From a virus: a stretch of 24,304 nt of DNA. Positions 1,454-24,304 of the stretch are shown in pieces; the first letter of the stretch is position 1; each line of letters starts with the position of its first letter. The notes beneath the pieces were generated by a model that worked only from the letters and a program-made list of their open reading frames with translations, ran no database searches and was not told the origin of the DNA. A program made the position numbers and the translations under genes. Location of the stretch: the IMG/VR virus record IMGVR_UViG_3300029911_001830, one strand, 5' to 3'.

Positions 1454-1876
1454 ATGGCCGTCATTACCCAATCAAACAGTTCCAGTCAGCTTACACGGTA
1501 TTTCCTCGGCTATAGCACGCTGTATTCGAATATCACCGGCGTGCGTTCGCTCTATGACATTGATCTGATCAATATTGATCTGATGACATCATTCAATACA
1601 CGGGTGGGCGAGCGGGTTATGCGGCCCGACTACGGCTGCAAACTGTGGGATATGTTGTTTGAGCCGATGACGCCGATCCTGGCCGGTGCGATCATAGCCG
1701 AAGCCACCCGCATCTGCAACCTCGATGCCCGCGTGGTGCCCCAGACGATCACTCCGCTGCAAATCGACAAAGGGTTTCGCATCGAAGCCACGCTTTTGTA
1801 TCTGCCTTGGAACGTGATCGCCACATTCAGCGCCAATTTTGAACTCTCTGAAACCACCTATTTCAATCAGTCATAA
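1454..1876 (+). CDS. gp25/GPW-like baseplate wedge protein (TssE / P2 gpW / T4 gp25 family)
   Basis: 140 aa. The segment RSLYDIDLINIDLMTSFNTRVGERVMRPDYGCKLWDMLFEPMTPILAGAIIAEATRICNLDARV aligns with the T4 gp25 core RSIKNSLLGIITTRKGSRPFDPEFGCDLSDQLFENMTPLTADTVERNIESAVRNYEPRI. Both share P-D/E-F/Y-G-C-x-L-x-D-x-L-F-E-x-M-T-P, a conserved I/V-E run and an R-I/V pair. A GGTGGA RBS lies 6 nt before the ATG. The size is typical of the family. Confidence 0.8.
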   Translation: MAVITQSNSSSQLTRYFLGYSTLYSNITGVRSLYDIDLINIDLMTSFNTRVGERVMRPDYGCKLWDMLFEPMTPILAGAIIAEATRICNLDARVVPQTITPLQIDKGFRIEATLLYLPWNVIATFSANFELSETTYFNQS

Positions 1877-1887
1877 GGACCATTCCA

Positions 1888-4800
1888 GTGAGTTCGCGGC
1901 AAACAGACCTCCTCGCAGGAGACGAATGGACTTCGATCTATCAGGGTTTCACCCAGATCAATTTCAACGCCACCGACCCGGTAAGCATCAATCAAGCTCT
2001 TAGGAATTACATCCTCGTCAATTATCCCGAGAACTTCAATGATTGGATCATCTCCTCGGAATTTGTCGCGATAACCGATCTTCTTTCCTGGCTGGCGGGA
2101 ACATTGGCCTTCAAGACCGATATCGCGGCGCGTGAAAACTTCATCGACACCGCCGAATCGCGCGAAAGCATCCTGCGACTGGCGCGTTTCCTGTCATACA
2201 ATCCGAGCCGCTGTCAACCCGCCACTGGCGTGCTGAAACTCACCCAGGTAACGACCAGTGATGATGTGTACGACAGTCTTGGTAACGATCTCGCCAATCA
2301 GGCGGTGGTCTGGAATGACCCGAATAATATCAACTGGCAAGAACAATTCACCCTGGTCATGAACGCCGCGTTCATCCAAACCAATCCGTTCGGCCTGCCG
2401 TTAGCCTCCGGCACGGTGGCGAATGTGAGCACCGACCTGTACCGGATCAACGGTTTGGCTTCCGCCTCCAGCCTGAGTTTCAGCGCCACGGTCAGCGGCA
2501 CCGTGATGGCGTTCGAGATTTGCAATGGCGATTTCAGCGACAATGGCACTCTGTTCGAACGCGATCCCAATCCAGCCAATGCCCTGCAACTGTATTATTT
2601 GAACGACAGTAATGGTTATGCCAGCACGCGCACCGGTTTCTTCCTGCTGTTCAAACAAGGGAACACCGCCCAACAGGTGTTCCAGATCGCCACCCCGGTG
2701 CAGAACCAGTTGCTCGATCTGGGGGTAAGCAACGTCAATAATAACGATATCTGGGTGGATACCGTCGATGACAATGGCGCCGTGCAAATCGATTGGACCA
2801 AAGTCCCGGCGATCTTCAACAATAATATCACCTATAACAATCTCGCCAATACCGTACGCACAATCTACTCGGTGCTGACCCGCGATAACGATCAGGTCAC
2901 CCTCCGGTTCTCGGATGGCAGTTTCGGTCTCGCCCCGGTCGGCAATATTGCGGTGACCTACCGGGTGTCCAACGGTCTGACCTACCAAATCCAGCCGAGC
3001 GAAATCAGCAACATCACACTGCCGATCCAATATTTCAACACCGCCGGATCGCCCAAGCTGGTGTATCTGACGTTTTCGCTGCTGGAGACCGTGGCGAATG
3101 CCAGTGCAGCCGAAACGATCGAGCAAATCCGCCAGCGCGCCCCCCAGGTCTATGGTACGCAGAACCGGATGGTGTCCGGTCAGGACTACAATACCTTTCC
3201 GTTGTCCTCCAATCTGGCGGTCAAGATCAACGCCGTCAACCGAGTCTATAGTGGCCAATCGCGCTACATCGATCTGCATGATCCGACCGGCACCTATCAG
3301 GACCTGTCGATCTTCGGCGAGGATGGCCTGTTCTTCAGCGATCCGGCGAATACCTATTTCGAAGTGCCCACTACGCTCAATCGCACCTCATTACAAATCT
3401 TCAATGATTATATCGTGCCTGCGATCAATCAGTATACCACAGCGAATTTGATCCGCGACGTGCTGCTGCAGAATGTCCGGAACAACACCATCCGGGCGCC
3501 GCTCGATCAGGCCGGTGCGCCCTTTACCTGGGCGCCGTCCAGTGCCGCATTATTCAACACCAGCGGGACGTTCATCCATGATGCCAATCGGGGCCGCGTC
3601 GCCCTCCCCAGCCTGCCCGCTGCGGCCGGGTTGATCCAGGTCGGGGCGCTGTTACAGTTCAGTGTCAACAGCACCCTGGTTTGGGTTTCGGTGGTCAGCC
3701 TCGGCAATGCGATCGATACCCCCTTGGTGGTCAATACGGCAGGGCCAGTGACGCTGTCGCAAAGCCTGCCAAGCGGGGCGATCCTGCTCGCTGTGCTGCC
3801 CCAGGTGGTTACCACGGTGCCATCGACCCTGAACACCCCGAGCGGGTTGTCGGTCAATATGCTCTCGGGCTATCTCGATCTGCGGCTGTCCTTCTCGCTG
3901 CTCTACGATTATGCCACCGGGCTTTGGGTTCTGGGCACGGCGCAGAACAGTTTTGGCGCGCCTCAGGCGACGCTGGGCGGGCCGAATGGGACCACGGTGC
4001 TGATCGGGCTGGTTAACATTGTCGGCGGCGTGTGGCGGATCAATACGCGCGGCCTGCGCTATGTGTTCGAAAGCCTCGGCGCGGTCGAATGGTACGACAA
4101 TGGCGTGCGCACCCTGGCGCAGACCACGGGCGAAGCCACGGCCGATAATCTCAGCGTGCTGCGGATCAATCCCAATCTGAACGACCCGAGGGGCTATGCG
4201 TTGGGAATCGATTACGGCCTCACCATCGATCGGCTCTGGACCTATCCGGATGGCACGGCCGAACCCCGGCGCACCACGGTCTTGTTTGCTGATAGTAACG
4301 GTGATGGCGTGCCGGATCGGCCCGACACGTTTTACAACCTCATCTCCGGCAGCCCGGCGACAAACTATTTGTTCTGGAGCAACACAGCAGTGCCTCCGTA
4401 TGACCAACCATATTACACAGTGAACGGGTATGACAATGATGGTTTGCTGCAAGCGGATACCCCGCCGCTCGGCACGGTCGGCTTTCAGGTCGTCTCTTCG
4501 GTCACCCCATTAGCGAATGAAACCTTTTGGGTGTATCAACTCACCGGCTGGACGCAGGACACCACGAGCAGCTATCGCTTCGCCATCGGACGCGGTCCGA
4601 ATGTCGCGGCCAATTGGATCAGCGCCTCGGCCAGCGCCACGCCCAGTGGCGATGCGTTATTCTTTCATTGGCAACATTACGCCCCGAGTGATCATCGGAT
4701 CGATCCGGCCAGCACCAATATCGTCGATATTTTTTGCCTGACCTACTCGTATGACAGTGCGGTGCGGCAATGGATCACAGCGGGCGCGATTGCCGCCCAG

Positions 4801-5274
4801 CAACCCTATCCGCCAACCGAACTGGACCTCAGTCTGGCGTTTTCCGGGTTGGAAGATTTCAAGATGTTCTCCGACACGATCGTGTGGCGGCCCGTGCAAT
4901 ATCAATTCCTGTTCGGTGCCGCTGCCGATCCGGCCCTGCAAGCCAAATTCAAAGTCGTCCGGGCGACCAATTCGGCAGTCAGCGATGGCGAAATCCAGAG
5001 CAGCATCCTTGCCGCAATCAATGTGTTCTTTGCCGTCAGCAACTGGGATTTCGGCGAAACGTTCTACTTTACCGAATTGGCCGCGTATATCCATCAGCAA
5101 CTGGTCGGGCAAATCCTGTCTGTCGTCATCGTGCCAGTGATCGCGAATGGCGCATTCGGGGACGGGTTCGAGATACCGTGCCAAGCCAACGAGATTTTCA
5201 TCAGCGTGGCACAGGTCGCAGATATCGTTCTGATCGCGTCCAACACCGCGACCAACCTGCGGATCGCAAATTAA
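1888..5274 (+). CDS. large structural protein, putatively baseplate-J/gp6-like. The assignment comes from position only
   Basis: Uninterrupted 1128-codon ORF with a GTG start, AAGGA 9 nt upstream and a 12-nt gap after the gp25-like gene. In P2, T4, eCIS and T6SS the gene following the gp25 homolog is the J/gp6/TssF wedge protein. I could not confirm a family motif by eye. Its stop codon TAA (5272-5274) directly abuts the ATG of the next gene. Confidence 0.8.
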   Translation: MSSRQTDLLAGDEWTSIYQGFTQINFNATDPVSINQALRNYILVNYPENFNDWIISSEFVAITDLLSWLAGTLAFKTDIAARENFIDTAESRESILRLARFLSYNPSRCQPATGVLKLTQVTTSDDVYDSLGNDLANQAVVWNDPNNINWQEQFTLVMNAAFIQTNPFGLPLASGTVANVSTDLYRINGLASASSLSFSATVSGTVMAFEICNGDFSDNGTLFERDPNPANALQLYYLNDSNGYASTRTGFFLLFKQGNTAQQVFQIATPVQNQLLDLGVSNVNNNDIWVDTVDDNGAVQIDWTKVPAIFNNNITYNNLANTVRTIYSVLTRDNDQVTLRFSDGSFGLAPVGNIAVTYRVSNGLTYQIQPSEISNITLPIQYFNTAGSPKLVYLTFSLLETVANASAAETIEQIRQRAPQVYGTQNRMVSGQDYNTFPLSSNLAVKINAVNRVYSGQSRYIDLHDPTGTYQDLSIFGEDGLFFSDPANTYFEVPTTLNRTSLQIFNDYIVPAINQYTTANLIRDVLLQNVRNNTIRAPLDQAGAPFTWAPSSAALFNTSGTFIHDANRGRVALPSLPAAAGLIQVGALLQFSVNSTLVWVSVVSLGNAIDTPLVVNTAGPVTLSQSLPSGAILLAVLPQVVTTVPSTLNTPSGLSVNMLSGYLDLRLSFSLLYDYATGLWVLGTAQNSFGAPQATLGGPNGTTVLIGLVNIVGGVWRINTRGLRYVFESLGAVEWYDNGVRTLAQTTGEATADNLSVLRINPNLNDPRGYALGIDYGLTIDRLWTYPDGTAEPRRTTVLFADSNGDGVPDRPDTFYNLISGSPATNYLFWSNTAVPPYDQPYYTVNGYDNDGLLQADTPPLGTVGFQVVSSVTPLANETFWVYQLTGWTQDTTSSYRFAIGRGPNVAANWISASASATPSGDALFFHWQHYAPSDHRIDPASTNIVDIFCLTYSYDSAVRQWITAGAIAAQQPYPPTELDLSLAFSGLEDFKMFSDTIVWRPVQYQFLFGAAADPALQAKFKVVRATNSAVSDGEIQSSILAAINVFFAVSNWDFGETFYFTELAAYIHQQLVGQILSVVIVPVIANGAFGDGFEIPCQANEIFISVAQVADIVLIASNTATNLRIAN

Positions 5275-8200
5275 ATGACCAAACGGCGTTTCATCTCCCT
5301 GCTGCCCGGCTGCAACCAAACCGCCGACCTGACCGCCTTCTTCGGCGCCACGGTCGATGCCTTATTCCAGCCAGGAATTTCCGACAGTATCAATGGTTAC
5401 ATCGGTCACCAAATCAGCGGGGCCGACCCGACCACCGATTTCTATCTCGCCGAACCGGATCAGACTCGCGCGTTCTACCAGTTGGAACCCGGCATGGTGA
5501 GCCTCAATTCCACCAGCAATACGATTCGCAATGCCCTGACCTATCCGGATTTCATTTCTTATCTCGATGACACCGGGGCGATCGTCAGCAATCAGCAGCG
5601 GCTGTTCGACACCGCATTGTATAGCTGGGCGCCGCCCATCAATATCGACGCCTGGATGAACTATCGGCAATACTATTGGTTTGGCGATGGCGCCGAGGAT
5701 ATGCCGGTCCTGGCGATTAACGTTCCAATCACGTATTATACCGGCGACGGGGTTACCACGCTGTTCGCCCTGCCACCATCCATGACCTCGATCACCCTCG
5801 CGCAGGAAACCCCGACCGGTTATGTTGCGGGTGAAACAATGCCAACCACCCTCAGTCCGGATGGCAGCAGTCTGATCTTCGCAGATGCGCCTGCTCTTGG
5901 CACAGTGGTCATGGTGACGCGCATTGCCGACTTTATCGGCACCGTGACCAACATGACGAGCATCGATGTGACCGGACTCACCTCAAATGATACTACCCCC
6001 TCACGCGCGCCCAGTCCGCCGGTCACCCAGCTTAGCTCGGGGATGCTGCTGCGTATCTACGATACCTTGCATCTGACCGAAGGCTGGGGTGGTCCGGCCT
6101 GGGATACCACGCCCTGGGACGCAGCGGCCTTCGATCAGTATATCATCGATGGCGTCGGTCAGAGCATCCGGTTCACCCCGTATGGCACGCTGATCCGGGG
6201 TCTCGCGGCACAATACGTCACCATTGATCGCTCATCGCAGCAAACCAACGCATGGTCGAGCCGCAATCTGTGGGTGCATCGCGCCACCTTCCTGTGGGCC
6301 GGAGTGGATTTCGTCAGCCGTCAAGCCTTGCGCCCAATCATCGAATTCGTCCGCGATCTGGTGTTATGGCAATGCTCTGCCTCACTCTACAAACCGACCC
6401 CTCAGCAAGGCAGCACCCTCACCTTCGCGGGAACCTTGCCGGTCGCCACCACCGTCAAGGGGTTTGATGTCGAGATCGGTGTCACGAGCGAAACGTTAAC
6501 CACGCCGATTCCGGTTGTTACAGTCATCACCACAGCATCCACTGCGGTCACCCTGGCGACACCCTTGCCTGCGCTACTGGGACCGTTCGCGGCAGGCACT
6601 TCCATGACCTTCCAGCAGATTTGGTCGGAGGATGTGGCGCCATTGTTCATGCTGTATGATCTCAGCACCACCCCCGCGCCCTTGAACGATCCGGTTCGTT
6701 ATCCCAACAGCACGTTTTATGGCGATCACATTTTCGGCTACGCGCTGGGCACCGGGGCGGCCGATCCGGTCATTTTGCAACCCTTGGTGTTTGACAGCAA
6801 TGGTATCATTGTCTACGACAATGCGATCGCCACGACACAATATCTGGCCGGATCGACGCCGATCATCGGGCTTTATCGTTACGCCACGCATAGTAGCGCG
6901 GGTGATCCGCAATATTACTCGCCGTGGCACGATGCGGGCATCACCAGCCAGTCGATCGCGATCAATGGCTTTTGGGATATTCCGGTCAATTTGCAAGCCA
7001 ATCCCTTGGCGCAAGAGGTTAGCCGGGTGTCGAACAGCGATGTCCAGCAGCATTTTGCCGACTTGATCAGCCAGCAAAGCAATTTCAGCGGCACGGCCAG
7101 TGCCAGCAACAACTATCGCGACAGTCCGCGCGATCTGTCTCTCGGCACCCAGGTTCTCCAGCATCGGGCGACCCTGCTCAAGGCCATGCTGCTGGCGTCG
7201 TCCAGCCAATTCGATCTGACCCTGGCACTGCGCTACGCCGATCAGGAATATAACAGATTCCGTAACAAATTCGCCCGCAAGCTGGTTGATCTATGCAATC
7301 GTGGTGTGCTGCGAGTGGATATCGATCCTGCCAGTACTTGGGTGGCGACGACCCTGGCGGCCTTGAAGATTGGCCATACCAATGCGATGCCGTTTTGGCT
7401 CAGCACGATGGCGGGCGGCCAATGGTTCATTCCGCCCACGGCCTCGGCCCTGGGTATCCAACCGGCTGTGGTGCCTGCGCTGCTGGTCGATGCCTTGTAT
7501 AATCCGCCGATTACTTTCATCCAGGGGCATGACGGCAGTCGCACACCCGCCAATAATGACTGGCGCGATGCGATCATCCTGGCGCTGGAACAACTAATCT
7601 ACACCAATCTCGATCCTGCGTTGCAGACCGAAGCGCGGCCGGTGTTTGACATTCAGCAATGGTGTGGCGGGCATTTCTACGCCCCCGCGAACGGCTATAG
7701 CCACGCCGAGGTGAGCAGCCTGCTGGCGCCATTCTTCGAAATCTGGGCGCAGAACAACGGGCTGGATTATCGCAATGCGCTGGGCTACGATCCGAGCAAT
7801 CCTTTCACCTGGAACTATCGCGGCAGCCTCGACCTCTTTGGCTTGCCGATGGCTGGAAGCTGGCGCGCGGTCTATCACGATTATTACGGCACCGATGCGC
7901 CACATCTGCGTCCCTGGGAAATGCTGGGCTTTCAAACTCAGCCGTCCTGGTGGGTGACGCAGTATGGCGCGCCGCCTTACACCCCCAGCAATCGGGTCTG
8001 GATCGACGCCACGAACGGCTATATCGCGGGTGGCGTGCGCGCGGGCTATGATGCGGTCTATTCTCGGCCCGGTCTGCTGGCGGTCTTGCCGGTCGATGCG
8101 ACGGGCCATCTGCGCGATCCCACCCAAATCGGTCTGGTCACGGTCACTTCGGGGCTCGTCGCGCTCTCCAGCCAGCCCTGGCAAGCAGGCGATTTCGGTC

Positions 8201-11200
8201 CGGTCGAGATGCTTTGGCGGACCACCCCGTCGTTTCAATATGCCCTGGCCTGTGTCAGTTTTTTGATGAAGCCCGCCCGCTTCACCGATACCTGCTGGAC
8301 GACCCTCACGCGCGGCCTGATCGCTGATCAATGGGTCGATCTGAACACTTTGTTGCGTTCCACTGACTCAACCAATCTGCTGCATGGCGAGAGCGATGCG
8401 GCAGGCCAACCTGTGATGGTCACTGGCGTCTCGCAATGGCTCGCCGACTATCTGGTTTCGCAGGGCGGCACGAGCAGTCAATTGGGCGATGCGGTGCGCG
8501 GCTTGGATGTGCGCCTGCTGCATCAGATGGCGGGGTTCGTATCGAGCAACACGGTGCAGGCGGTGTGCGATAGTTTCGGCTTGCTACCTGCCGAGAATGT
8601 GCAGACAATTCTCTATACATCGCCACCCAACGATACCGAGGTCTATAGCGGCGTGATCGTCGAGTGGACGGGCGCCGGGTGGCGGGTGATTGGCTATGAC
8701 GGGCGCACCCCTTCCTTCACCATCATCCCGCCTGATCCGGCCTCGGTCAAAGGCGTGATCAGTCTCGCCAGCGTCGCGGAACCGAAGATCAGCCCCTGGC
8801 AAGCCAGCACGTGGTATGCGCTGAATACTTACTGCAATTCGCAGGGTTCGGTGTATCAGTGCCAACGCTCGCACACCAGCGGCCCGATCTTCGAACTGAG
8901 TTTCTGGACCCCGCGTCCCGATCTCAGTCCATTCGCGATCCCGGCGCCACGCATCGTCACCTATGCGACCGGTTTCAAGGCGCTCCAACAAGTCGCCTAT
9001 GGCACGATATTCAACACCTATCAGGCGGTCGGCGATTTTCTGCTCGGCTATGAACGTTACTTGGTATCACGGGGGTGGATTTTCAGCGGCACCGATCCGC
9101 AATCCGGCGCGATCCTGAACTGGTCGATGGCGGCATTGGAATTCCTGTCCTGGACGCAGGTCAAATGGCAGCCCGGCAACTTCATCGCCCTGTCGCCCGG
9201 ACAGCGGCAAATCCAATTCAGCACGCTCACCGGGACGATCAATAACGTGGAGGACAACAGCACGGGGTTCTTCGGGCTGTGCGATCGCGTCGGCGCCCCG
9301 ATCAGCCAAAACAACGTCCTGCTCAGCCGTCTGGATGGCGATCTGACCATCACCGCGCTGAATGCCGATATCTTCCTGGCCCGGCTCTATCTCAGCACCA
9401 TCGAACATTTGTTAGTTTTTGATAACGTAACCATCTTTGACGATGCCATCTATCTGCCGTTGTTCAATCTCCGCCAGCCGCGTCTGCAATTGATCTGCAA
9501 TCGGGCGCAGCAATGGAGCGGACGGCTGGACGCACCCGGCTTCGTCATCACCGGCAACACCTTGGCCTCTAGCTTCGAGAAAGCCGCCAATGATGTGCGC
9601 TACATGTTTGACATCGAACTGGCAGATGTGGCCGACCTGCGGGACTACGCACGTCACGTGATCGGCTATGCCGAGCGTAATTACCTGGATAACCTCCTGT
9701 TGGCCGAAGTCGAGCAGTTTGAGTTCTATCAAGGAATGATCCAGCAGAAGGGTGCCCCCGGCGTGTTCGAGAAACTGATGCGCAGCACCCGCGCATCCGG
9801 CAACAGCACGCTATCGTTCCTCGAAGAATGGGGCTTTCAGGTCGGCCAATACGGGGCTCCGGCCGATGGGTTCGTGACGTTCCAACTGGCGCAGACCGAT
9901 ACCCGTGACGATCCGCAGTTTGTCAGTTTTCAGCCGCTCGCCAATGCGCCGCTGAACTGGATCATGCTCGCGCCGGGCGATCCGCGCTGGTATGACGTGC
10001 CGCCGAACCCGAGCCAATTTTTCACCATGCAGAGCGGCTTCGTCCCTGCCGCCTTGCCGATTGCCGGGCCGGTGCGGCTAACCGATGTCGCCAATACAGT
10101 GTTCGCCTGGGCCGACGTGCCGACGGTGTTCAGCCAAGAATTGCAGGCAGGTACTGCTACCTTGCCCGCCGGAGAACGCCTCTGGGTGTATGAACGAGCC
10201 GATCTAACCTTTACGGTGCTGGAAAGCTTTAACACAGCGGCGCTCCCAAATGCGCTGCTCAGCGTGCTCGCACCCGTCATCGGCAGCACCGATCGAACCG
10301 CGACCCAGACCACGCGACTGACCCTCAGCCAACCACTCAATCTGCAACAAAGTGACATTGGTAGCTACATCGTCATTGATGCGCCCAGTCTGTCCTATCC
10401 GGACCTGCATGGTGTCGCAACCTTGATCGCCATCAACTTCGCCAATAATACCATCGATATCGATTCGGTTAGCACACAGGGCTACGTCTATCTGCCCACC
10501 GACACCGCGCCTATGGTGCGCATTCTGCGCGAAATGCGGTTTCCTGATCTGGCGACGCTGATGGTCGCGGGCTACGATTGGATGATCGGCGACCTCGCCT
10601 GGATCGACGGTTCAGCCACGATGCCCTGGACGGTGCAGCAATGGGATGGCGGCGAATGGTCTCTCGCCCGCCAGCAGCCCCTGCGCAATAATCCGACGAC
10701 GATCAGCGAGACGCTGATCTATGCAGCCGGGACGCAGATCACGGGTATGCTCATGAGCAGCAACACGCCAGTGGTGAACGCCATCGACGTGATCGATCCG
10801 GTTGCTGGCTTAATTGCAGGCCGCGCCCGCAAGGAACTCGATTATCTCACCCCGTTCGATCCGGCCCGCTATAACGCCGGAGCGACATCTGCTGCGCTCA
10901 ACCCGTGGGGGCCGAATGAACGCGGCCGGGTGTGGTGGAATATCGCCACCGTCAAGTTTATCGATCCCTCCACCGATGTCTTAGGCGCAAGTAACGATCG
11001 CGATGTGGTCGAGTTGCACTATCGCATCCAGCAATGGACCCGTGTGGCGCCACTTAGCAGCGTCGATGTGTATGAATGGATCGAAAGCCTCGTCGATCCG
11101 ACGACCTATATCGCCCAGGCCATAACCGATTCGTCCTTGGGACGGGTGTATCTCACGGACGCGCCCTCCTGGGTCGAGCGGGTGGTGTATGATCCGACCC

Positions 11201-19340: not shown

Positions 19341-19800
19341 ATGGCTATGAAAAGCAGCAGGCGCAGCCTTGGGATAATGAATCAGTCATCCTCGATCGGG
19401 ATGGCTACGAAAAGACGCATTCGCATTTAGGTGGCTACGAAAACGCCGACAGCTACAAAAATCTGCTGAGCCGTCACCCCGTTGGTATCCGGGATGCAGT
19501 CATTCCTGTTCGAATGGCTACGAAAACTGGCTTGCGTAGCGGCTACACGGGCTGATGGGATGCAGCCACTCCTGTGGCTACGAAAAGGAAGGGGAGTTGC
19601 CTACGACCATTCCGGGAAGTATTTGCACGGCATGATAGCAAAGGCGCTATTACAGTCATCCATCTTGTTTGGCTGGCTACGGAAACGGAAGACCTCAAAT
19701 GGGGGACGATCGGATGCAGCCATCCGATGGATGGCTACTAAAATCATGAGAGTCCGCGCACGACGAAGCTCCAGTCACCCGGTATGGTGGATGGCTACGA
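19341..19800 (+). repeat. degenerate CRISPR-like mini-array in plus orientation, about 10 decayed units
   Basis: Units such as GGATGCAGTCATTCCTGTTCGAATGGCTACGAAAAC, GATGCAGCCACTCCTGTGGCTACGAAAAG, GATGCAGCCATCCGATGGATGGCTACTAAAAT and CAGTCACCCGGTATGGTGGATGGCTACGACAAAC match the reverse complement of the downstream CRISPR repeat (GGTGCAGTCACCCTATCGTTGGGTGGCTACGAAAAC). Spacing is irregular at 30-70 nt. Confidence 0.55.
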
Positions 19801-19841
19801 CAAACTTTAACATCTTGTGCCGCCAAAGACTAAATACTTGC

Positions 19842-20096
19842 ATGACCCTGCGAGAACTTTTGCAAATCACCGAGCGAAAACATTCATTGCACTATCACGC
19901 GCGACTCAATCCGGAGAACATGTGGTTCGACATCGTGGACATGAACGATCACGTGGTGGCGATCGATGTGTCGCCCAATCCCAAGCGGGCGCGAGAGATT
20001 GCGGCGACCTTCTATCCAGGGCAGATCATCGAGAGCGCCCGCCAGTCCCAAAGGAATCGTAGTTCTCGTAGCCATCAAGAGGATGACTGTTCATAG
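19842..20096 (+). CDS. small hypothetical protein (84 aa) between the two inverted repeat blocks
   Basis: ATG at 19842 gives MTLRELLQITERKHSLHYHARLNPENMWFDIVDMNDHVVAIDVSPNPKRAREIAATFYPGQIIESARQSQ... This is the only protein-like part of the 204-aa track ORF 19482..20096, whose 5' part is a read-through of the repeats. No clear RBS. The 3' end runs into a repeat-like TCTCGTAGCC...GGATGACTG element. Confidence 0.3.
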   Translation: MTLRELLQITERKHSLHYHARLNPENMWFDIVDMNDHVVAIDVSPNPKRAREIAATFYPGQIIESARQSQRNRSSRSHQEDDCS

Positions 20097-20125
20097 CCGG
20101 GGATCGACGCCTGGGGACGTCCGCT

Positions 20126-20340
20126 CTTTTCGTAGCCTTTTCGTAGCCGCCACAATGTGTGACTGGCGTTGACGCCAAGGCCAAGGCCGACCTAGAGCTT
20201 TTACCGTAGCCTTTTCGTAGCCGCCATCCTCAGCATAACCTTTTCGTAGCCGCCTCTGACTGACTGAATCGTAGCTATTTGTCCCTCAGCATAACCTTTT
20301 CGTAGCCATTTCGGGTGACACCTACTGTTTTCGTCGCCCT
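20126..20340. repeat. degenerate CRISPR-like repeat block in the opposite orientation to 19341-19800
   Basis: Repeated TTTTCGTAGCC(G/A)CC units include a tandem pair CTTTTCGTAGCCTTTTCGTAGCC (20125-20147) and two identical 24-mers CCTCAGCATAACCTTTTCGTAGCC at 20228-20251 and 20284-20307. It ends with GGGTGACACC...GTTTTCGTCGCCC. Confidence 0.5.
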
Positions 20341-20516: not shown

Positions 20517-21275
20517 ATGAGTATTCGCGCCTGGATGCGGCTGGTGGAGGCGATCATGTCCCCCGCAGCCCCACCGCCCGTCACCGAGACGGCCGCCTTC
20601 CAGCAGTGGTTTGCGGGCAGTAAGGTGGTCGATAAGGCGGGGAAGCCGCTCCGCTGCTATCACGGCACCCAATCGGACTTTCATACGTTTTCCAATGAGG
20701 ATGCGCCGGGGCGGGGCGGTCTGTTGGCGTTCTTTTCGGTGAAGCCGCAATTTGCCAGTTCCTATGCCTCGGACGAGCGCTCGCCTGAGGTGCGGGCGGG
20801 CGCCCAGGTGATGCCGGTCTATCTGCGCATCGTCAATCCATTCGATTACCGCAAAGATTATCACATGGCCGGGAGTTTCTATGATGAGACCGGCGGCATC
20901 CAGGATCGTTTTGAGAGCAACCGCATCCTCATGGGCCTCGGTTGGAAGATCGATAACATTGACGATGTCTCGACGCCGCTGCTGACGGAAAAGCAGTTTA
21001 CCAGGGCACTCCGCAAGGGCAGTTGGGATGCCTTGGAGGCGCCGGACTTCGTGGAGTATATCCATGATGCTGGTTATGACGGGATCGTGTTGATGGAAAA
21101 CCGCAGCCTCAACTTCGCCATCTTCGAGGCTAATCAGGTTAAGAGCGCGATTGGCAATCGGGGGACCTTCGATCCCGAGTCCGATCACATTGGTGAATCC
21201 GCACCGGCGCGCGATACCGGGTGGCGGGCGTTTCACCGTATTTCACGGCTCGGCCGCAAACACCCTGAGGTCTAG
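20517..21275 (+). CDS. hypothetical protein, possibly ADP-ribosyltransferase-fold (YHGT motif)
   Basis: 252 aa, GAGGA 13 nt upstream, ordinary composition. LRCYHGTQSDFHTF (YHGT at 20658-20669) resembles the H-G-S/T NAD-binding motif of H-Y-E-class ARTs (PARP, Tpt1/KptA). Possible Tyr and Glu follow in FASSYA and NFAIFEANQV. The opposite-strand ORF 20412..21236 is Arg-rich and antisense-like. Confidence 0.6.
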   Translation: MSIRAWMRLVEAIMSPAAPPPVTETAAFQQWFAGSKVVDKAGKPLRCYHGTQSDFHTFSNEDAPGRGGLLAFFSVKPQFASSYASDERSPEVRAGAQVMPVYLRIVNPFDYRKDYHMAGSFYDETGGIQDRFESNRILMGLGWKIDNIDDVSTPLLTEKQFTRALRKGSWDALEAPDFVEYIHDAGYDGIVLMENRSLNFAIFEANQVKSAIGNRGTFDPESDHIGESAPARDTGWRAFHRISRLGRKHPEV

Positions 21276-21909: not shown

Positions 21910-21995
21910 GGTCTACAACCCTCCAATACGAATTGGAAGCGTCGGATTTGCGCTTTTCGATCGCGTGGTTGTTGTTGGCTATATTTGCAGATGTC

Positions 21996-22045: not shown

Positions 22046-23768
22046 GTTTTCGTAGCCGCCCAAGGGTGACTGAAACCAGCTTGCCGGTCCTCTTGCTGTC
22101 GGTCTTGTGGTCGTATCCATTTCCATTTTCATAGCCATGCCAACGGGATGACTGCACTTCTGTGTAGTTACTCGTGAGTGACGATTCTGTTTTCGTAGCC
22201 ATCCCATGGCTCTTGAAAGGACGTCCGCAGTCGTGCCCTTGTCGTAGCCGCCGGATGGTAGGGTGAGTGAGCCGATGATGCCCGTCTGGCCGTGATGTAC
22301 GGGGTTGTCGTAGCCATCCTAGCCACCCAACGATAGGGTGACTGCGCCTCCTGCGCTCAGCCCTCGGATACATTTTTCGTAGCCACCCGAAGGGTGACTG
22401 AAACTGAGGCATTCGGGGTTCGCAAGGCTCACACGTTTTTCGTAGCCTTTTCGTAGCTTTTTGTAGCCTTCAATCCCCGCCCATTTCTGTATGTTGTCGT
22501 AGCCACTCTCTCTCATAGCCGACGAACGACATAGCGCGATCGTCGCTCTCATACAATGCATCAAATAAGCTCTCGCGCCGTGCACTCTCATTTTCGTAGC
22601 CACATGGCCGGGTGACTGAACCGCCATGCATTCGCCATGCAAGTTTTTCGTAGCCACCCAGGTATACCCCCAACGGGCGCCAGTTGAATTTTTCGTAGCC
22701 ACCGAAACATCGGGTGACTGGAACTCAGCGGCTAGCTCGCCGACCTGGGATTGATATTTTCGTAGCCACCCACTTTCCATAGCTACCCAAAAAAGGTGAC
22801 TTTAAACCCGCCCGCCACACAAGATTTTCGTAGCCACCCAAGAGTGACTGAACCCGAACCCAACTGGATCAGTGGTCTTTTAGTAGCCCACGCAAATTTT
22901 CGTAGCCGCCCGAATGCCGGACCGTACCCATGCCACCCTGTGTGTTGTTGTAGCGACCCACCAATCATCGATTTCCGTTTTCGTAGCCGTCCCGAGTGGG
23001 GTGACTGAATCTCGGAGCCACCAAGCCAGACGCAACATTCTTTTTGTAGCCGTCCGAGTGGCGGAGCGACTGAAGCCTTGGCCAGCATGTCGATCATCAG
23101 CTTCTGTTTTCTGTAGCCACTCGATGTAGACTGTCGAGGGCTGTCGGGCAAGTAGTTTTGTAACACCAAAGGTTGTAGGGTCTCCGAAACGCGTGTTTTC
23201 GTAGCCATCCAAAGGCGCTGTTCCACCTCAGGCATGGGTGTTTTCGTAGCCATCCAGCCATCCAAAGACAGGATGACTGAGCCAATCCGTCACATTTTTC
23301 GTAGCCCCTGCGAGGGCTGTCGGAGCGGTGTTTTCGTAGCCTCGAACGCAACAAGTCGTTGCCATTTCTTGTCGTAGCCGTCCAAAAGGCAGGATGACTG
23401 TGGGGGAGTGGTCTGCACGGCGAATTCAGCGATGTTTTCGTAGCCACCCAACGGCACGGCATGACCGAAGCTCCGATCGAAACTTTTTTCGTAGCCATAG
23501 GGTGACTGAATCGTCCCGAACTAAATCGGTTTTTGGAGCGGCCTACGCCGACGGCACGATCCGATGGCAGTTCTCGTAGCCTTTTTTCGTAGCTATAGGG
23601 TGACTGATCGTAGCGGCCGGGCAGCGACTCCAAAGTTTTCGTAGCCACCCAAGGCTGGGAAACCGGCTGAGCCCTTTTCTTTTTGTAGCCGCGTCCGGCG
23701 ACTGAGGCTGAATAAAAACTGCCGCTCCATCGCTGCACCAGCAGGTGTTGCGGCCTGCACAGGCTTTC
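22046..23768. repeat. extended zone of decayed CRISPR repeat units, many of a shorter variant GTTTTCGTAGCCACCCAAGGGTGACTGAAAC
   Basis: About 30 units beginning (G)TTTTCGTAGCC at irregular 45-100-nt spacing. Examples are 22046, 22374, 22590, 22690, 22825, 22976, 23488 and 23569, which end GGGTGACTGAA(A/C)C and lack the CGATA segment. Units at 22128 and 22303 are closer to the intact repeat. There are tandem partial copies at 22436-22468. A 13-mer CGAGGGCTGTCGG recurs in two different inter-repeat segments (about 23130 and 23306). Confidence 0.7.
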
Positions 23769-24304
23769 GTTTTCGTAGCCACCCAACGATAGGGTGACTG
23801 CACCCAGGATGATGGTGGCGTACTGGCCAAAGGTGTTTTCGTAGCCACCCAACGACGGGGTGACTGCACCGACCTGCTCTTGGCAGGTTATCGCAATTTT
23901 TCGTAGCCACCCAACGATAGGGTGACTGCACCCGCGCTCACCCGGATCGTCGATGGCTTTTTGTTTTCCGTAGCCACTTCCTCAATCCAGTTTTCGTAGC
24001 CACCCAACGATAGGGTGACTGCACCGAGATCGAGGTGAAGTGGTTGCCTGTCTGTTTTCGTAGCCACCCAACGATAGGGTGACTGCACCCAAAACCAATG
24101 CTGAGGATAATCCGTCCCAGTTTTCGTAGCCACCCAACGATAGGGTGACTGCACCCATCCTGTCCAGCGGCGCTTGAACGCGCCAGTTTTCGTAGCCACC
24201 CAACGATAGGAATACAACGCTCAGTTCGTCAGTTTTCGTAGCCACCCAACGATAGGGTGACTGCACCACCGGCACTCCAGGAGAACGAACAGTACTAGTT
24301 TTCG
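23769..24304. CRISPR. CRISPR array with 36-nt repeat GTTTTCGTAGCCACCCAACGATAGGGTGACTGCACC. It continues past the window end
   Basis: Repeats at 23769-23804, 23835-23870, 23897-23932 (begins TTTTTC), 23990-24025, 24054-24089, 24120-24155, 24186-24210 (truncated to 25 nt), 24232-24267 and 24298-24304 (cut by the window end). A degenerate copy lies at 23963-23989. Spacers are unique and 26-30 nt long. The reverse complement ends ...GGCTACGAAAAC, like typical repeat 3' handles. The conserved end is at high coordinates, so the leader is probably beyond 24304 and transcription probably runs on the minus strand. Confidence 0.9.

Follow-up and report, generated by a model that had tools for sequence, protein, structure and literature searches.

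Viral genomes are known to carry CRISPR sequences in several forms. Huge phages harbor compact arrays without acquisition genes and often without interference genes, as well as a type I-C variant that lacks Cas1 and Cas2 (Al-Shayeb et al. 2020, PMC7162821). Solitary repeat units in viruses act as RNA anti-CRISPRs (Racrs), often beside anti-CRISPR (acr) genes (Camara-Wilpert et al. 2023, PMC10651486), and phage Cracr arrays consist of units that resemble repeats and combine an 8-nt handle with short guides (bioRxiv 10.1101/2024.10.29.618823). Here, we analyse a 24,304-nt stretch of viral DNA (IMG/VR record IMGVR_UViG_3300029911_001830; hereafter the window) that ends in a CRISPR array, which we call array A. 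The element is an uncultured jumbo myovirus with a genome larger than 259 kb, as its baseplate proteins, roughly 40% identity to jumbo phages and a 259-kb contig establish. Our preferred explanation, in which we have middling confidence, is that array A is an orphaned remnant: this jumbo phage, which now depends on a type I-C system, would once have carried a second, Cas6-style CRISPR system, whose array no longer acquires spacers and is eroding amid older fossil arrays of its own kind.

The locus shares several features with the huge-phage arrays of PMC7162821, namely a jumbo genome, no cas1, cas2 or cas4 gene seen, one array without adjacent cas genes and one compact array next to cas genes. 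It also departs from them. That study describes a helicase in place of Cas3, whereas the Cas3 of this phage has both HD and helicase parts above curated cut-offs; array A has 14 repeats compared with a reported median of 6; and, unlike those arrays, it adjoins about 45 decayed repeat units spread over 5.5 kb and shows only losses beside a varying I-C array. Bacterial orphan arrays resemble array A in their regular repeats, unique spacers, lack of cognate cas genes nearby, lack of gain and erosion, but array A is virus-borne, lies near a complete non-cognate interference module and is accompanied by an unusually large fossil field. Racrs (PMC10651486) likewise are repeat-derived units in viral genomes without cas genes, possibly in an anti-defence neighborhood like this one; they are solitary, however, and usually stand just after a promoter, whereas the decayed units here are clustered (8, 7 and 30), mostly lack an intact hairpin and have no detected framing promoters. 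Cracr and crlRNA units also keep 5′-handle nucleotides and have short, irregular guide-like segments, but here the last handle base is variable, no partly complementary target was found in the phage DNA searched, and the units are far more numerous. Huge-phage arrays without cas genes are already known; what is unusual is that one phage pairs two non-cognate arrays whose dynamics are opposite, that its fossil field is so large, and that survival is biased toward the handle side of the repeat.

Array A is clearly a CRISPR array. Its 36-nt direct repeats (GTTTTCGTAGCCACCCAACGATAGGGTGACTGCACC) occupy the final 536 nt of the window with a period of about 66 nt (62–66 nt), are separated by unique 26–30-nt spacers, form a hairpin and are followed by an AT-rich flank. 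A reading of the same DNA from its letters alone (the sequence-only reading) had described a regular array with spacers of this length, and that description is borne out: with one mismatch allowed, the core 10-mer TTTCGTAGCC matches 54 times in the window, against 0.9 matches expected, and 9 of the 54 lie inside array A. The array's features in the window are as follows.

23769..24304, minus strand (the likelier transcribed strand): clean part of array A, repeats R1–R8 plus 7 nt of R9
Starts at 23769, 23835, 23897, 23990, 24054, 24120 and 24232: full repeats of array A

Five of these repeats (23769, 23990, 24054, 24120 and 24232) are identical over 36 nt. The sequence-only reading had counted eight, but repeat 2 (23835) carries two substitutions (ACGACGGGG) and only the first 7 nt of R9, where the window end cuts the array, lie inside. 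It was correct that repeat 3 (23897) begins with T and that repeat 7 is shortened to 25 nt (24186–24210) and followed by 21 nt. Its explanation of repeat 7 by an internal deletion also holds, although this was not the sole event of its kind: a second truncated repeat (GTTTTCCGTAGCCAC, 15 nt, 23963–23977), followed by 12 nt, is hidden in the 57-nt interval between repeats 3 and 4, and single-unit deletions are found in other samples.

The element comes from bog metagenomes (3300029945, 3300029915, 3300045771 and ERZ2725xxxx). Copies with 99.9% identity are present in assemblies from JGI, ENA and Logan, some of which contain the complete array (L001 13247–14138, L002, L008 and L020; loci past the window end, namely L001, L002, L008, L009 and L020, were obtained by exact-protein look-ups). 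The complete array A comprises 14 repeats, each 36 nt long, and 13 spacers, with five more full repeats past the window end, and 10 of the 14 repeats are identical across their length. All 13 spacers are different, the 11 intact ones measure 26–30 nt, and none matches elsewhere in the phage. The flank after the last repeat (~150 nt) is 55% AT, compared with a locus mean of 44% and with 40% in the flank before repeat 1. It holds one sigma-70-like, promoter-like site directed into array A, with a promoter count not above chance, and beyond it lie two more degenerate units and then a run of small minus-strand genes. One assembly places the region on a 259-kb contig (ERZ27250025:k141_1547704) that terminates inside array A, and contigs end within one of the phage's two arrays in many independent assemblies (L003, L004, L006, L009, L026, L028 and L030). 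The repeats probably also broke the assembly at 24304, making the window end a contig end.

Array A is probably transcribed from the minus strand. Most imperfect repeats and all decayed units of the window lie on its low-coordinate side, the high-coordinate flank is the AT-rich one with the promoter-like site, and the adjacent genes there are all on the minus strand. Read on this strand, the repeat folds as GGUGC-[AGUCACCC-UAUCGUU-GGGUGGCU]-ACGAAAAC, in which a stem of 8 bp precedes a tail of exactly 8 nt (-13.6 kcal/mol, z = -2.95). A stem plus 8 nt is the layout of Cas6-type cleavage, which leaves an 8-nt 5′ handle in types I-E, I-F and III, and processing of this type is what we propose for array A. 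The tail ACGAAAAC appears to resemble type III-A tags such as ACGAGAAC, and comparison with the Staphylococcus epidermidis III-A repeat gives z = 4.0. With the ‘stem + 8-nt tag’ repeats of types III-A and VI-A, array A has in common a length of 36 nt, a C-rich/G-rich stem and a tail that is rich in A and ends in AAC. It differs from them in that no Cas13, Cas10 or Csm/Cmr genes were found in the roughly 90 kb of the >259-kb phage genome covered by our cas search, and in that Rfam CRISPR-DR typing of the repeat gave no match, even at E = 10.

No cas genes occur within 34 kb upstream of array A (the 24-kb window plus 10 kb) or within 17 kb downstream; for the upstream part, Pfam, PHROGs and PADLOC agree with the sequence-only reading that nothing cas-like precedes the array in the window. 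A complete type I-C interference module (cas3, cas5c, cas8c and cas7) lies 17–23 kb past array A on contig Ga0311330_10001192, with cas3 beginning at 17 kb and divergent from cas5c-cas8c-cas7. All matches to NCBIfam models (TIGR01587, TIGR01596, TIGR01876, TIGR01863 and TIGR02589) exceed the curated cut-offs, with scores of 112.8 bits for the cas3 core, 76.6 for cas3 HD, 121.4 for Cas5c, 310 for Cas8c and 310 for Cas7. The acquisition genes cas1, cas2 and cas4 are absent for 10 kb either side of the I-C operon and were not found in the rest of the roughly 90 kb examined. A second array follows cas7 directly. Its repeat is GTTTCATCCGTCCTTCGGGACGGGTGTGGATTGCAAC, 37 nt in the direction of the cas operon, with an ending close to the canonical I-C repeat end GTGGATTGAAAC and a degenerate terminal repeat at the far end of the array.

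L024 6088–6476; L026 1–360; L027 3929–4030; L028 1–520: I-C array, about 23 kb past array A

The two arrays differ in repeat and in spacer length. The array A repeat has an 8-nt tail, ACGAAAAC, and the I-C repeat a 14-nt tail, GUGUGGAUUGCAAC; stem and loop are different as well; and spacers in the I-C array measure 33–36 nt, compared with 26–30 nt in array A. Global alignment of the two repeats with free end gaps gives a score of 4.0, against 2.5 ± 1.3 for shuffles, which is not significant. The flanks of the arrays (L001 14139–14390 and L024 6477–6661) show a weak, non-significant resemblance (p = 0.09) centered on a TTGACA/TTGGCA box (TTTGACAAGTAAATCCGCAAT in one, TTTGGCAGGCAAATGCGAAT in the other) that could reflect a shared promoter type. 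Because repeat, spacer length and leader are unrelated, array A is non-cognate to the only cas genes found; and because these I-C genes are far off and have their own unrelated array beside them, array A is an orphan relative to every cas gene found. The sequence-only reading had left two options, cas genes and leader beyond the window end or an orphaned array, and each captured part of the situation. There is a leader-like flank past the window end, and cas genes do occur on the same contig, but 17 kb away and with an array of their own. The orphan status accords with the lack of cas genes immediately downstream once the sequence is extended past 24304, yet array A is not isolated, being accompanied by 45 further degenerate copies. 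One I-C spacer has a 16-nt match to the phage's own gene for a major vault protein (MVP) homolog, which we attribute to chance, as the match breaks down outside the 16-mer (19/34). One assembly has, ~4.5 kb past the I-C array, a gene for an IS1595-family transposase (L024 1108–2118) that scores 129 bits and exceeds the cut-off.

The I-C array provides an internal control for array A because both sit in the same genomes. Across four assemblies, the I-C array presents 15 distinct spacers, only 3 of which are shared, each by two assemblies. Array A presents no novel spacer in ten assemblies. Its changes there consist of two independent single-unit losses (s9 in L021 and s8 in L023) and two single-nucleotide polymorphisms (SNPs) in one spacer, and the losses remove whole repeat–spacer units exactly, in CRISPR-like fashion. 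Array A has thus ceased to acquire spacers and only erodes, and its two truncated repeats belong to this erosion. The I-C array varies with no cas1, cas2 or cas4 gene nearby, which implies that its adaptation is provided in trans or by another part of the genome.

Outside array A, its repeat is present in about 45 degenerate copies, which form three blocks within a 5.5-kb region of the window.

19343–19806, repeat read on the minus strand (inverted relative to array A): block A, 8 degenerate units at ~60-nt spacing
20062–20340, oriented as block C and array A: block B, 7 degenerate units, just upstream of an ADP-ribosyltransferase (ART) gene
22046–23768, oriented as array A (minus strand the likelier transcribed one): block C, 30 degenerate units at irregular spacing of 10–97 nt

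Block A has a tail variant of its own, CTGCATCC; hairpins are preserved best there, and their stems differ in sequence. Block B includes tandem copies of one 11-mer of the repeat, TTTTCGTAGCC, standing by itself. Block C adjoins R1 directly: decayed units meet the perfect repeat 1 at a sharp boundary, and decay shows no gradient. No promoters or terminators framing the degenerate units were detected, and comparison of their pseudo-spacers with 77 kb of phage DNA, including the cas region, yielded only 13–14-mers at chance level. Just before block C, the window and L005 differ from L001 by 3-nt indels at window positions 21943–21945 and 21968–21970; samples otherwise differ by single SNPs or small indels, found at window position 23126 and near L001 12880.

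Apart from this phage, neither the 185,579 species-representative genomes scanned nor the metagenome collection of JGI yielded an array with the array A repeat. The genome scans gave a single chance match (L011), the metagenome scan gave this phage and chance matches inside coding sequence (L007 and L010), scans of viral collections gave no matches, and a literature search for the repeat sequence returned only unrelated primers. In the spacer search that the sequence-only reading had proposed, six spacers compared with IMG/VR, the whole array compared with INPHARED and PLSDB, and ~390 kb of collected sequence contained no significant protospacer, and a single borderline match emerged. Spacer 1 (23805–23834) matches Methylobacterium bullatum NZ_LR743510.1 96532–96561 at 27–28 of 30 positions, 22 of them contiguous (E = 0.07). 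The match lies in-frame within a 463-aa open reading frame (ORF) that looks by sequence like a DctA-type transporter, with TFGQYATIIL in one translation and SFAQYATIIL in the other, and might point to the Hyphomicrobiales as host or target.

How might this arrangement have arisen? We propose that the window holds the older part of the 14-repeat array A, stranded in a phage whose I-C system uses another repeat family. While active, array A would have been transcribed on the minus strand from the AT-rich leader that lies immediately beyond the end of the window; its repeats would each have folded into the 8-bp hairpin followed by ACGAAAAC, and a Cas6-type cut would have left each CRISPR RNA (crRNA) with an 8-nt 5′ handle. 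Having stopped acquiring spacers, it is now eroding by single-unit deletions, by deletions that truncate repeats and by point changes. The ~45 degenerate units may then represent the end state of the same erosion acting on older arrays of this repeat family, which were split by an inversion and by inserted genes. Array A presumably has no function at present, and it would function only if Cas proteins were supplied in trans.

Several observations weigh against this proposal. The absence of spacer gain covers only a short time span, because the sampled population is nearly clonal (99.9% identity). The 10 identical repeats are unexpected for a long-dead array and are compatible with recent activity or with selection. 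A cognate cas set could reside elsewhere in the phage, in the portion of its >259-kb genome beyond the ~90 kb covered. The orientation signals disagree, as similarity to the LwaCas13a direct repeat (sequence from PMC11345561) is higher for the plus-strand reading (z = 5.0) than for the minus-strand reading (z = 3.2). Finally, decay is uneven along the repeat, with the 11-mer TTTTCGTAGCC surviving 3–4 times more often than other parts. Outside the clean array, 8-mers of this segment occur 25–31 times on the plus strand and 4–5 times on the minus strand, compared with 8 occurrences for the 3′ stem arm and 1 for the loop, and a further 30 kb of phage DNA contains no copy of the 11-mer. Read on the minus strand, what survives is the stem base plus the 8-nt crRNA handle, although the last handle base is not conserved among the degenerate units (G/C 15/15). 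We rejected mutation bias as the source of this unevenness, as the 8-mers compared are equal in G+C content. Some stems also persist: at the canonical position, 4 bp or more of stem can form in 15 of 46 decayed units, whereas shuffles give 8.2 ± 2.5 (p = 0.008), and the retained stems use 14 different arm pairs (for example, CATCC/GGATG, CATTC/GAATG and CCAC/GTGG). As a set, however, the degenerate units fold no better than shuffles when the minimum free energy of whole segments is compared (mean z ~0, p = 0.47), and 24 of 46 are without a canonical stem; general hairpin conservation by compensatory changes in all units is thus not supported, and any such conservation concerns a subset. Both the uneven decay and the retained stems hint that the units are, or once were, under constraint. 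The 11-mer bias and the abrupt boundary of block C might stem from selection acting on the handle, from polar deletions, or from descent from several arrays that had only that terminus in common.

Some of these same observations would be expected if array A still worked with Cas proteins borrowed in trans, either the host's or those of a phage locus not seen here, and its crRNAs targeted competing phages or host genes. The identical repeats, the stable hairpin (z about -3) and the leader-like flank with its promoter-like site suit such an array; the I-C array evidently acquires spacers without cas1, cas2 or cas4 nearby, so supply in trans does occur here; and the borderline match of spacer 1 to a Methylobacterium DctA-like gene would offer a target. 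There is precedent as well, in that huge phages without interference or integration genes can have the same repeats as their hosts, whose Cas proteins they may use (PMC7162821). We nevertheless regard a working array as rather unlikely, although it is the alternative we take most seriously. Its repeat occurs in this phage alone among the genomes and metagenomes scanned, no protospacer was recovered from IMG/VR (6 spacers), INPHARED or the ~390 kb of collected sequence, and no spacer was gained in ten assemblies while the I-C array turned over in the same population. The last point also argues against array A being a second array of the type I-C system, processed by Cas5c. Location on the same contig, 17–23 kb from a complete module, and a weak similarity of the plus-strand repeat to the I-C repeat (z = 2.9) speak for such a relationship, but the repeats differ in sequence, stem, loop and tail, the spacers differ in length, the leaders are not significantly similar, and the two arrays show opposite dynamics in the same genomes. 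We consider shared use by the I-C system very improbable.

The repeat units, mainly the degenerate ones, might instead be anti-defence RNAs, either Racr-like mimics that soak up host Cas6 or effector subunits or Cracr/crlRNA-like guides that keep their handles conserved and reprogram host Cas proteins. In the fullest version of this idea, the ~45 units would be a maintained, handle-bearing RNA battery that titrates or reprograms a host Cas6-type system and would form, with array A and the ART gene, a single anti-defence island, carried by a phage that has an I-C system of its own as well. Preferential survival of the stem base and 8-nt handle on the minus-strand reading, tandem occurrence of the 11-mer alone and retention of canonical stems with 14 arm pairs speak for such a role, and solitary repeat units, often beside acr genes (PMC10651486), and Cracr arrays (bioRxiv 10.1101/2024.10.29.618823) are precedents. 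By contrast, the degenerate set folds like shuffles and about half of it has no canonical stem, the last handle base varies, framing promoters and terminators were not found, pseudo-spacers match the 77 kb of phage DNA only at chance level, and the ART protein matches no known anti-CRISPR (Acr) or defence model. No diverged relative carrying the blocks was found. The decoy idea would be notable if true, and the evidence for it extends as far as the conservation asymmetry; we judge both the general and the fullest version improbable. Even less credible, and to our minds scarcely tenable, is that the repeats are non-CRISPR protein-binding sites in phage DNA, such as iterons, packaging sites or partition sites. 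The 11-mer is indeed the best-conserved segment, occurs in both orientations and in tandem, and is confined to 5.5 kb (0 copies in another 30 kb), but 14 repeats of 36 nt with unique 26–30-nt segments, a hairpin and an AT-rich flank constitute a CRISPR signature, and whole repeat–spacer units are lost exactly.

More broadly, the birth and death of huge-phage arrays without cas genes are poorly documented, and a phage with two arrays brings its own internal control to the study of viral CRISPR loss. An array that lies next to so many decayed units is likewise a natural setting in which to ask whether remnants of repeats are neutral debris or retained, handle-bearing decoys. If survival of the 11-mer reflects selection, then the RNA-based anti-CRISPR strategy would extend to large, multi-copy arrays.

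The remaining genes of interest in the window bear on the identity of the phage and on the surroundings of the repeat blocks.

1454–1876, plus strand: gp25-like baseplate protein, in a baseplate module
1888–5274, plus strand: baseplate wedge protein (phrog_10646, 1015 bits)
5275–15924, plus strand: 3549-aa ORF directly after the wedge gene, with no Pfam or PADLOC match
16757–19279, plus strand: full-length MVP homolog, an 840-aa ORF called as 829 aa (Pfam MVP_shoulder, E = 5e-18), directly upstream of block A
19842–20096, plus strand: small ORF of 84 aa between the inverted blocks A and B, a gene call in JGI assemblies with no family match
20517–21275, plus strand: ADP-ribosyltransferase (ART-PolyVal, 252 aa; PF18760, E = 7e-24) between blocks B and C

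The wedge protein is ~40% identical to its counterparts in Atu_ph07, Phosso, XbC2 and 121Q, jumbo phages with genomes of 350–490 kb, and the 3549-aa ORF that follows is presumably a giant structural or fibre protein. MVP is known chiefly from eukaryotic vault particles. At E ≤ 1e-10, a search for homologs of the phage protein gave 4679 matches, and many of these lie on 375–570-kb contigs that resemble jumbo phage genomes. The ART protein was considered as a known Acr or defence protein and rejected, as matches in PDB, PADLOC and NCBIfam were all absent. An identical ART protein is present on 24 contigs; homologs in other phages are 44–61% identical and lie in unrelated neighborhoods, sometimes in multiple copies (L016). 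Around the ART homologs (P0004, P0005 and P0010) and MVP homologs (P0079, P0080 and P0082) of other phages, we found neither synteny nor repeats.

Past the window end, between array A and the I-C module, parts of the genome vary between samples. At 6.5–8.5 kb past array A (L009 2923–4956, L020 7770–9939 and L021 7988–9939) lies a 677-aa, Ser/Pro/Thr-rich repetitive ORF that overlaps ORFs on the opposite strand. We considered this ORF as a compact effector and rejected it, as it is a Ser/Pro/Thr-rich repeat protein without similarity to Cas proteins. Gene callers disagree on this region (331, 361, 363 or 499 aa) and its length varies by sample, and for these reasons we regard it as hypervariable. 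About 11 kb past array A is a strain-variable segment that in L021 (12609–14288) and L022 (12052–13530) holds an ORF of at least 493–560 aa with no family match, and that in L020 (12609–13310) holds a 108-aa ORF followed by a methyltransferase gene.

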